This document shows, one piece after another, positions 1-6,103 of a stretch of DNA of 25,548 bases. The notes beneath the pieces were generated by a model. That model did no database searches. It was not told the origin of the DNA and saw only the letters and a program-made list of their open reading frames with translations. Made by a program: the position numbers and the translations under genes. Origin of the DNA: an uncultured Nitrospiraceae bacterium (GTDB lineage: Bacteria > Nitrospirota > Thermodesulfovibrionia > Thermodesulfovibrionales > Dissulfurispiraceae); contig CAMTVO010000022.1 in assembly GCA_947085205.1 (NCBI GenBank), positions 1 through 25,548 on the forward strand. The letters are read 5' to 3'. Position 1 is the first letter of the stretch. Each line of letters opens with the position of its first letter.

Positions 1-16
1 CAAAGAAATGATTCAA
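1..16 (-). CDS. 5' end of a gene running off the left edge (TTG-AAT-CAT-TTC-TTT-G, M-N-H-F-F-...); possibly an IS110-family DEDD recombinase
   Basis: SD GGAGGT at 28..23, 6-nt spacer, TTG at 16..14. MNHFF followed by a G-starting codon is compatible with the IS110 N-terminal '..FVGID' pattern. Only 5 codons are visible, so identity rests on the adjacent structured RNA. Confidence 0.35.
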
Positions 17-47
17 AGCAGCACCTCCGTAAAAAGTTATTTGAACA

Positions 48-215
48 AGGCAGGTGAAGCCTCCCGGCCAATCCTCCATGATGACAAGGGTTCAAAGACC
101 CAATCAACCTATTATGGCTATGGGAGGCAGGGAACAGACTCCGTTGAGGGTTCATTGACCCAGGTGATATGGAGTTCTCCTGCCTGTCCACCTTTAACGG
201 GTAAAACCCGTTCAT
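48..215 (-). ncRNA. Putative IS110 bridge/seek RNA (stem-loop plus two internal guide loops)
   Basis: Perfect hairpin AACGGGT-AAA-ACCCGTT (196-212). Loop B: stem 125-135/174-185 capped by GGGTTCATTGACCC (148-161). Loop A: stem 59-70/115-128 capped by GGGTTCAAAGACCC (88-101). Strand inferred from -10 box and gene orientation; a few G-U pairs would fit the + strand slightly better. Confidence 0.55.
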
Positions 216-221
216 ATAAAT

Positions 222-230
222 TTTATAACA
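222..230 (-). promoter_or_regulatory. Extended -10 element (TG-T-TATAAA) pointing into the structured RNA
   Basis: + strand TTTATAACA; would put the start site near 215, just before the 196-212 hairpin. No obvious -35. Confidence 0.4.
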
Positions 231-252
231 CATATTCTTAGTAGGAGGTTTT

Positions 253-414
253 ATGGAAAGGTGGAAATGCAGTGTATGCGGTTATGTATATGACCCGGAG
301 TATGGAGACCCTGATTCAGGCGTTGCACAGGGTACGCCATTTGAAAGTCTTACTGACGACTGGGTATGCCCTGTCTGCGGCGCATCAAAGGATATGTTTG
401 AAAAGGAAGTTTAA
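253..414 (+). CDS. Rubredoxin (53 aa; not in the ORF track)
   Basis: Manual translation [53 protein letters not shown]; two CxxCG knuckles, WxCPxC motif; SD AGGAGG at 243-248. Confidence 0.97.
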
Positions 415-442: not shown

Positions 443-928
443 ATGAATTCGATTGAGATTGCCATAAAAATGGAGACAGACGCCATAAAGTTTTATAACG
501 AGGCTGCTGAGAAATGCAACCATGTGGTAGGCAAAAAAATGTTTTTGTCCGTCGTTGAGGACGAAAAAAGACATCTTGATATGCTTTCGCAGTTACTTAA
601 AAAACTTGACCTGAAGATACAGGATGTCAGTCCCATGAAGAATGTCAAATCGATTTTTGAAGAAATGAAACATGAGATGATGGATCGGGTTGAGGCTACC
701 AAAGACGAACTTGAGGCATTTAATATTGCAATGGATATGGAAAAAGAGGGTATCGAATTTTACAAAAAAGCCGCCTCGGAAGCAACGACAGACAAAGAAA
801 AAAAACTGTTCGAAAGACTCATACATGAAGAAGAACAGCACTATGCTGTCTTTGCAAATACCTATTTCTTCATGTCCGATACTGGAAGCTGGTTTATGTG
901 GGAAGAGCACACCATTGTAGAAGGCTGA
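443..928 (+). CDS. Ferritin-like/rubrerythrin-family di-iron protein without a rubredoxin domain
   Basis: Duplicated helix pairs AIxME...FY...EDEKRH and AMDME...FY...EEEQH; SD AGGAGG. Confidence 0.9.
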   Translation: MNSIEIAIKMETDAIKFYNEAAEKCNHVVGKKMFLSVVEDEKRHLDMLSQLLKKLDLKIQDVSPMKNVKSIFEEMKHEMMDRVEATKDELEAFNIAMDMEKEGIEFYKKAASEATTDKEKKLFERLIHEEEQHYAVFANTYFFMSDTGSWFMWEEHTIVEG

Positions 929-5719: not shown

Positions 5720-5911
5720 CTATCCGGTTTTTAAGCAAAGAATGAGGTTGCAAAAATCCTCAATTCAGTGGATAATCTAAAGCATAAGGCAATTCTAATG
5801 TTGGTATACTCGGCAGGCTTACGAGTCGGTGAAGTGGTAAAATTGAAACCAGAAGACATTGACAGCAAGCGGATGCTGATACATATCAAAGAGGCAAAGG
5901 GAAGGAAAGAC
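5720..5911 (+). pseudogene. Tyrosine recombinase/integrase internal fragment
   Basis: 5744-5911 reads EVAKILNSVDNLKHKAILMLVYSAGLRVGEVVKLKPEDIDSKRMLIHIKEAKGRKD (box I GLRxxE and catalytic Lys region). Upstream LSKE is in another frame; no start codon and no box II. Confidence 0.9.
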
Positions 5912-5914
5912 CCC

Positions 5915-6103
5915 TGTAGATCGTAAAATACAATTGACCCCCTAAAAACCTATAATCTCCTTCCAAAAACATGAAGGAGGAATAAGAAGGGGTGATAAGT
6001 AGGTACAAGGATATACAATGAACTCAAAGAGATAGGCTACACAGGCTCTTTGTCATCGGTGTATAGGTATATAGCCGATGCAAAAGATATGGAAGAAATC
6101 AGG
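5915..6103 (+). mobile_element. IS21-family remnant (left end plus internally deleted istA)
   Basis: Begins TGTAGATCGTAAAATACAATTGACCCCC (IS21-like TGT end); GTG at 5992; from 6002 another frame reads GTRIYNELKEIGYTGSLSSVYRYI, an IstA-type HTH motif. Right boundary approximate. Confidence 0.75.

Follow-up and report, generated by a model that had tools for sequence, protein, structure and literature searches.

An IS110 element ahead of a rubredoxin gene

The window, by which we mean the whole 25,548-nt stretch of DNA that was analyzed, is the start of contig C22 in a source assembly of 1.89 Mb and 65 contigs. On its minus strand, an intact IS110 element has its left end at positions 17 to 247, while its recombinase and right end lie on contig C24; window positions 1 to 141 and C24 overlap exactly. 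The element measures 1,428 nt with both cores counted. As in the IS110 group, the core CT is present at both ends, at window positions 246 to 247 and after TTGA on C24, where the right end reads TAG TTGA, followed by the core CT and the flank CCGTTA. The earlier note had predicted CT-CC(G) past the right end, and C24 reads CT-CCGTT. Judged from its sequence, this CT-core IS110 element sits antisense between the Shine-Dalgarno (SD) sequence and the start codon of the rubredoxin gene, and its left end restores the SD. The features of the locus are as follows.

1 to 16, minus strand: start of the recombinase (TTG at 16 to 14), continuing on C24; from the sequence
2 to 244, plus strand: final 79 codons, with the TAG TAG stop pair (239 to 244), of a hed-like antisense frame; from the list of open reading frames (ORFs) and the comparison of elements
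17 to 245, minus strand: noncoding left end with the predicted bridge RNA; from fold and alignment
24 to 28, minus strand: SD of the recombinase gene; from the sequence, conserved in the alignment of relatives
74 to 78, minus strand: predicted right donor guide TGGAG; matches the left end CTCC and covaries with CA-core and CTTC-end relatives
102 to 111, minus strand: predicted left donor guide GTTGA-TT; matches the right end GTTGA-CT
126 to 184, minus strand: predicted target-binding loop with closing stem, left guide, central hairpin (148 to 161), and right guide; stems kept, loops variable
139 to 147, minus strand: predicted right target guide; its reverse complement, CT-CCGTT, agrees with the right flank found on C24
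162 to 173, minus strand: predicted left target guide TCCATATCAC-CT (anti-SD-like plus CAT); covaries with left flanks
196 to 212, minus strand: 5' stem-loop of the predicted bridge RNA; from the fold, missing in some relatives
222 to 230, minus strand: extended -10 box TG-n-TATAAA; read by eye at the computed junction, TG.TATA conserved in the alignment
243 to 248, plus strand: rebuilt SD, AGGAGG; 243 to 247 are element end and core, 248 is host
246 to 247, minus strand: CT core and left boundary (AG on the plus strand); from the right end TTGA-CT, contig ends, and the same boundary in relatives
253 to 414, plus strand: rubredoxin, an intact host gene directly behind the element; from the ORF list and profile scan
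443 to 928, plus strand: rubrerythrin-family gene, likely in the same operon; from the ORF list and profile scan

The boundary at 246 to 247, proposed in the earlier note, is confirmed by the CT core found there, by relatives that share it, and by the loose ends of contigs from public runs, which fall at 244 to 251, with one contig ending at 247. A metatranscriptome contig of a relative (X13; depth, 3.3), which as a contig cannot show transcription, spans 1 to 247, ends at 247, and differs by 10 letters. No joints of an empty allele or a circle junction occurred among the contigs of four runs, where, with contigs alone, such an absence is uninformative. The insertion site of the source strain was reconstructed from the two contigs together with synteny. 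The flank on C24 is the end of a CBS-domain gene. Among 16 rubredoxin loci examined in relatives, 9 have a CBS-domain gene upstream of rubredoxin, which makes it very likely that C22 and C24 are the two sides of one insertion.

The recombinase is a 396-aa IS110 protein that begins with TTG on the minus strand and continues on C24 from position 126 to 1316. Both PF01548 and PF02371 score over their cutoffs, corresponding to DEDD RuvC and Tnp domains, and residues D9, E62, D104, D107, and S315 align with the catalytic residues given for IS621. In the IS1111 group, the RNA lies downstream of the recombinase gene, whereas here the RNA region is upstream and the recombinase stop codon stands 4 nt ahead of the right core. 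An IS1111-type reading, with the RNA on the plus strand and the right end near 217, was rejected because the minus-strand recombinase begins at position 16. The seekRNA elements of the IS1111 group belong to the same recombinase family, with an RNA-selected target and subterminal inverted repeats (Siddiquee 2024, PMC11187229).

The predicted bridge RNA and its target sites

In minus-strand order, the left end runs from the core through the extended -10 box (230 to 222), a 5' hairpin (212 to 196), a target loop (184 to 126), and a donor loop (about 117 to 68) to the SD and start of the recombinase gene. This long noncoding left end thus holds two internal loops with central hairpins, as in the IS110 group, and in keeping with that group the guides of the target loop covary with the target and those of the donor loop with the element ends. 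In an alignment of 20 elements, the stems are conserved and the sequences of the guides differ. The consensus fold has 32 pairs, 7 of them with two-sided change, and 3 of these 7 represent covariation between donor guide and DNA end. In relatives, the right donor guide changes together with the left end (GGAG/CTCC, GGTG/CACC, and GAAG/CTTC). At the computed circle junction, the right-end -35 box TTGACT sits 17 to 18 nt before the left-end TG-n-TATAAA, and, by analogy with IS621, the joined ends would form a promoter for the bridge RNA. An Rfam scan of the window gave three chance matches, none near the gathering score and none in positions 1 to 300.

The strings on which the earlier note had based its guide reading are all in place. 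Positions 162 to 173 (AGGTGATATGGA) match positions 246 to 257 (AGGTTTTATGGA) at 10 of 12 letters, CTCCG lies at 139 to 143 within the opposite loop strand (136 to 147), CCTCC lies at 73 to 77, and CCTATTA lies at 108 to 114. Its use of CCTATTA as a donor match to the left end did not hold up, since the left donor guide is GTTGA(TT), at 102 to 108 on the minus strand, and matches the right end. The flank on C24 agrees with the right target guide at 7 of 7 nt. When the left arm in the window (TCCATAAAAC) and the right arm on C24 (CCGTT) are joined around CT, 15 of 17 positions match the target read from the guides. Elsewhere in the 1.89-Mb assembly, matches of at least 15 of 17 occur at just two other CT-core sites (15 or 16), both of them SD-ATG sites. 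The guide reading common among the elements equals the 3' tail of the 16S rRNA of one relative, G008 (ATCACCTCCTTT; tail located by an Rfam model). No 16S gene was found in the source assembly, and an exact 16S-tail pattern was found in 0 of 5 relatives.

Two side observations concern the guides. The SD region of the recombinase gene itself (window positions 14 to 31) looks like an inverted version of the target (CAC-CT-CCGT). Within one transcript, moreover, the recombinase SD could be paired by the left guide, which is anti-SD-like, so that self-insertion or self-repression is possible. Two relatives (L075 and L156) occupy a near-identical insertion site with right guides one base apart (reading CTGC versus CTCC), possibly a guide mutation after insertion.

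Relatives with the same element came mostly from metagenome-assembled genomes (MAGs) of Nitrospirota and Thermodesulfobacteriota; viral contigs searched for the element gave no matches. We collected 96 loci in genome contigs with a guide-neutral pattern and 56 in metagenomes with a pattern that demanded a GGAG right guide. Including the window, there were 153 matches, of which we kept 127 whose left flank was distinct and no shorter than 60 nt and dropped 26 (duplicates, or no flank or boundary). A gene start was called when a start codon lay 3 to 12 nt from the core on the opposite strand and opened an ORF spanning 50 codons or more (a minimum of 30 where a contig end truncated it). Gene starts were called at 53 of 68 sites with a GGAG right guide, a class over-sampled by design because the metagenome pattern demanded that guide, but at just 2 of 59 sites with other guides. 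At the remaining 15 of these 68 SD-guide sites, no start was called. One Nitrospirae MAG supplies 13 of the 68 sites, and 11 of these 13 were called. As a motif-only null, the same caller fires in the source assembly at 15% of GGAG sites and at 39 to 43% of AAGGAGG(T) sites. The right flanks, most of them shorter than 300 nt, begin with CTCC in 29 of 32 SD-guide cases versus 0 of 21 others. The cores of the relatives are CT or CA.

We scanned 52 of the 53 called ORFs with NCBIfam profiles (rubredoxin was scanned separately); 27 match, in several cases beginning at the very first residues. Among the genes that follow the element are atpB, mreB, aroE, wrbA, yefM, and flgG, along with genes for HU and a hydrogenase large subunit. 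One SD-guided copy (L064) immediately precedes the major tail tube gene of a phage. The contrast in gene-start placement supports the idea, put forward in the earlier note, of an RNA-guided IS110 recombinase aimed at translation initiation regions, and we regard targeting of SD sites by a bridge RNA as highly probable. The claim that an SD is rebuilt behind the element is likewise borne out, by AGGAGG at 243 to 248 here and by a rebuilt SD at 62 of the 68 SD-guide sites. The left end that does the rebuilding, CTCCT, also starts 49 of the 59 non-SD relatives and is therefore a preexisting end sequence of the family, not a special invention of SD-targeting elements.

The earlier note had read the target as an SD plus an ATG, of which the ATG part holds only loosely. 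The start codon falls in the guide register (+5) at 12 of 53 called sites (background, 15.6%; P = 0.12) and otherwise floats from +3 to +12. At positions -4 to -2, the left arm matches at 0.43 to 0.53 in SD elements versus 0.83 to 0.92 in non-SD relatives. Because these register and left-arm matches are low, it is the SD that is recognized, and any reading of the ATG is loose. On average, an observed site agrees with its own guide at only 11.6 of 17 positions. The same values favor an alternative in which the element inserts at any GGAG(G), with gene-start placement arising mostly from selection against intragenic insertions and with the CAT of the guide doing nothing; the insertion at half-matches reported for IS621, in the part of a preprint available to us, points the same way. 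Against that alternative, left flanks fit their own guides better than shuffled ones (4.85 versus 4.32, with 0 of 2,000 shuffles as high). Starts at +5 or +6 are enriched (26 of 53, against a background of 34%; P = 0.014), and of the 68 different guide pairs from the neutral scan, 14 have both GGAG and CAT, 50 have neither, and 4 have just one of them. Moreover, non-SD relatives are under similar selection, yet they lie away from starts. We consider insertion at any GGAG(G) rather unlikely, and it is in part compatible with the pass-through explanation given below. Under guide-directed targeting of the SD, the right guide, the core, and the adjacent base would do most of the work, the left guide would pair loosely, and AT-rich DNA and the loss of gene-breaking insertions would sharpen the outcome. 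The CTCC shared by the donor and target right arms could favor half-match insertion.

A stop-free frame antisense to the recombinase

A stop-free antisense frame of 469 codons covers the length of the element, in phase with the codons of the recombinase. Its window part is plus-strand positions 2 to 241, and its TAG TAG stops (239 to 244) overlap the rebuilt SD. Before its last codon, the recombinase gene contains no TTA, CTA, or TCA, where 16 are expected (P about 1e-8), and it is the only one of 313 source-assembly frames of 350 to 450 codons with at most one such codon. We compared 49 full-length elements, of which 30 are SD-guided and 19 are not. Antisense stops number 5 in 11,765 codons of the SD-guided elements versus 195 in 7,374 codons of the others. 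After exclusion of 7 broken genes, from this count and from the trees, an antisense frame of at least 400 codons was present in 23 of 27 intact SD elements but in 0 of 15 intact others; 4 of the 27 carry one antisense stop. The element length is a multiple of three in 21 of 30 SD-guided elements versus 3 of 19 others, and no stop interrupts the frame across the bridge-RNA region in 31 of 44 SD left ends versus 6 of 50 others. The 27 intact SD genes contain no TTA, no TCA (0 of 1,001), and four CTA codons, while GCA, ACA, ATA, and GTA persist, with GCA at 13% and ACA at 21% of their boxes.

The composition and edges of the frame differ between the classes as well. Third-position G in the recombinase is 3 to 7% in five of eight codon boxes and 14 to 19% in two others in SD elements, versus 17 to 35% in non-SD relatives. 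Because of this depletion, the antisense strand is poor in C (17.7% versus 24.4%). Rho prefers C-rich RNA, the opposite of this strand, and the source assembly encodes Rho. On the entry side, all three frames stop within 28 to 49 nt in 30 of 30 SD elements versus 1 of 19 others. Full-length elements have an in-frame TAA at nt 10 to 12 and their first ATG at nt 16 to 58, which places that ATG too far inside for the host SD. An in-frame ATG lies 43 or 46 nt inside the right end in 23 of 27 SD elements. The SD pairing ahead of this start is weak (-3.0 kcal/mol in the source element and positive in several others), and the host SD is about 40 nt upstream.

Several mini-elements, which are nonautonomous, keep the left end and the bridge RNA: L098 (244 nt), L184 and L025 (243 nt), and L044 (451 nt). 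Although their genomes differ, L098 and L184 have the same variant right end, in which an ATG follows the core by 8 nt, a spacing ideally suited to the host SD. The frame from this ATG is open to the left-end stop in L098 and shifted in L184.

In the best tree, which includes seven Bacillota outgroups, SD elements form three groups, and the guide label switches three times, with the open frame following each time. Neither a single non-SD clade (AU P = 0.34) nor a single SD clade (P = 0.057) is rejected (without the outgroups, P = 0.36), and long branches are involved. The number of independent guide and frame switches is thus 1 to 3, and because a single switch is not rejected, the P values of our comparisons overstate independence. 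The frame has been kept over 40 to 100% protein identity with third positions near saturation, which shows that purifying selection on it continues. Two plasmid-borne elements count against a universal rule. A distant IS110 element on a Lactococcus garvieae plasmid (L197) has CCTCCCACC on both sides, lies beside the start of a sortase gene, and is apparently at an SD, with 24 antisense stops. An outgroup element on a Sulfobacillus plasmid (L201; 62% GC) has no antisense stops and a 465-codon antisense frame.

We propose that the host gene behind the element is reached by transcription and translation that pass through it. By inference from IS621, the element would excise or be copied as a circle, a bridge RNA made from the junction promoter would pair with the target, and strand exchange would take place at the CT core within AAGGAGG sites, leaving the element antisense to the host gene. 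Transcription from the host would from there on run across 1.4 kb of element. Incoming ribosomes would stop in all three frames near the entry and restart at the conserved ATG 43 to 46 nt inside the right end, and their translation would shield the antisense RNA from Rho. At TAG TAG the ribosomes would stop and reinitiate at the overlapping rebuilt SD. The stop-free, C-poor antisense frame thus likely lets the gene behind the element stay expressed, and an anti-polarity, pass-through function for the frame seems likely to a similar degree. The earlier note expected insertions to separate genes from their promoters; because features of the element hint at a design for read-through, that expectation is probably too pessimistic. 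We hold with less assurance, but still on the favorable side, to the broader idea of a translational "stealth insert," in which the guide copies the anti-SD tail of 16S rRNA, ribosomes stop at entry, the C-poor frame carries them 1.4 kb past Rho, and tandem stops pass them on to the rebuilt SD. Genes would then survive insertion even when essential or placed in mid-operon, guide and frame would be gained and lost together, and the hed frame of IS900 would be explained.

An alternative that keeps SD targeting as described holds that the antisense frame encodes a protein with a job of its own, either a transposition regulator or a host factor. Third positions of the recombinase lean toward pyrimidines, so that the first positions of antisense codons are purines, a pattern seen in real genes. 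In addition, the ATG at 43 or 46 recurs, and four-fold sites are somewhat more alike among SD elements (0.38 to 0.44) than among others (0.28 to 0.31) at equal protein identity; against this, a two-letter bias alone yields the extra identity. The product would be dictated by the recombinase codons and the RNA, it has no Pfam match at an E value of 0.1, and the 244-nt L098 keeps an open frame without a recombinase-length product. We therefore find a dedicated antisense protein improbable.

Weaker still, and in our view very improbable, is the reading that an outward promoter in the left end drives the gene behind it and the open frame is no more than an accident of inheritance: insertion sequences often have promoters that point outward and positions 213 to 240 are AT-rich, but no outward promoter or terminator was found in window positions 1 to 300, and an inherited accident is excluded because antisense stops are so few (against 16 per gene expected in the source assembly) and third positions are saturated.

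If pass-through works, it offers a natural design for nonpolar insertion of cargo ahead of any gene, and the element would be a natural case of a bridge recombinase depending for the most part on a single guide arm. One pair of DNA strands here carries three codes, namely, a recombinase, a predicted structured guide RNA, and an antisense open frame, and a controlled, testable function can be proposed for the hed type of antisense ORF.

Relation to known elements and further copies

The bridge recombinases IS621 and ISCro4 belong to the IS110 group (Durrant 2024, PMC11208160; Hiraizumi 2024, PMC11208158). As far as the portions of these papers available to us describe it, IS621 shares with the present element the DEDD RuvC and serine Tnp domains, the CT core at both ends, the long left end with a 5' stem-loop, the order of target loop then donor loop, and the covariation of guide and target; IS110 circles carry a promoter across the junction of right and left ends (PMC11208160). 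IS621-type proteins are distant from the recombinase here (E values of 1e-14 to 3e-13; 328 to 341 versus 396 aa). According to the same portions, IS621 enters REP repeats, whereas the present element enters SD sites, with CTCC common to the right arms of target and donor, and the element-spanning antisense open frame distinguishes it from IS621. The words "Shine" and "start codon" are absent from the Durrant text (PMC11208160).

Another close likeness is to IS900 of Mycobacterium avium, for which the available part of one account gives the target CATGNNNNNNTCTCCTT and an ORF on the complementary strand, hed, that spans the element and had no known function in 2021 (Conde 2021, PMC8141618). Insertion of IS900 and IS901 between SD and start codon is cited in the part available of another (Plague 2010, PMC2942039). 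The SD specificity, which the earlier note took to be undescribed, was thus on record (PMC8141618, PMC2942039). According to these partial accounts, IS900 and the present element have in common the IS110 family, a length of about 1.45 kb, insertion in one orientation between SD and start, a nearly identical target (CAT-N-CTCCTT), and a complementary-strand ORF spanning the element. They describe IS900 without a guide RNA, whereas here a predicted guide can be read. The present frame opens behind an in-frame TAA that is conserved, and it contains an internal ATG, while hed is described there as lacking its own ribosome-binding site and start. On these grounds, we class the element as a member of the IS110 bridge-RNA group that, by a likeness drawn from descriptions of IS900, appears to work as IS900 does.

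The elements analyzed here have 37 to 53% GC and sister lineages without the frame, unlike the setting of IS900. Mycobacterial DNA is GC-rich, and open antisense frames arise easily in it. Earlier work on IS900, IS901, and hed is reportedly that of Doran in 1997 and of Inglis in 2003, with the IS900 target habit said to date from 1997. The searches brought up no IS900 sequence, and no mycobacterial record was found among the matches listed (60 of 215 plasmid records).

A link between bridge RNA and SD targeting was absent from the literature searched and from the texts of PMC11208160, PMC11187229, and the bioRxiv preprints 10.1101/2025.10.25.684509 and 10.64898/2026.10.21.760802; supplements or ISfinder may list such targets. 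The only preprint joining the terms uses Shine-Dalgarno for a riboswitch. What was already known, as far as the sources seen go, is the SD target habit and the element-spanning antisense ORF, published for mycobacterial IS900. We found neither the guide basis of SD targeting nor the controlled comparison with sister lineages in any paper. The target habit of 1997 is hereby tied to a readable guide RNA.

Further copies were seen in passing. The source assembly holds a second one (C10:104686-104972), represented by its right part only, at a contig end, 97.9% identical and with the flank CT-CCTTT. A public run (X1) contains another left junction, from a second copy, with no ATG within the 30 nt shown. 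In G008, a left-end remnant at an SD-ATG site (L206/L027; G008:C1:1093404) is cut after the -10 box by what appears to be another insertion sequence. A 1,563-nt "plasmid" record with an IS110 gene only (L198; NZ_OY725734.1) is probably an insertion sequence circle filed as a plasmid. Elsewhere in the window, a 52-aa fragment on the minus strand (5768 to 5926), between a uvrA-like gene and the next gene, resembles what we take to be a piece of a tyrosine integrase.
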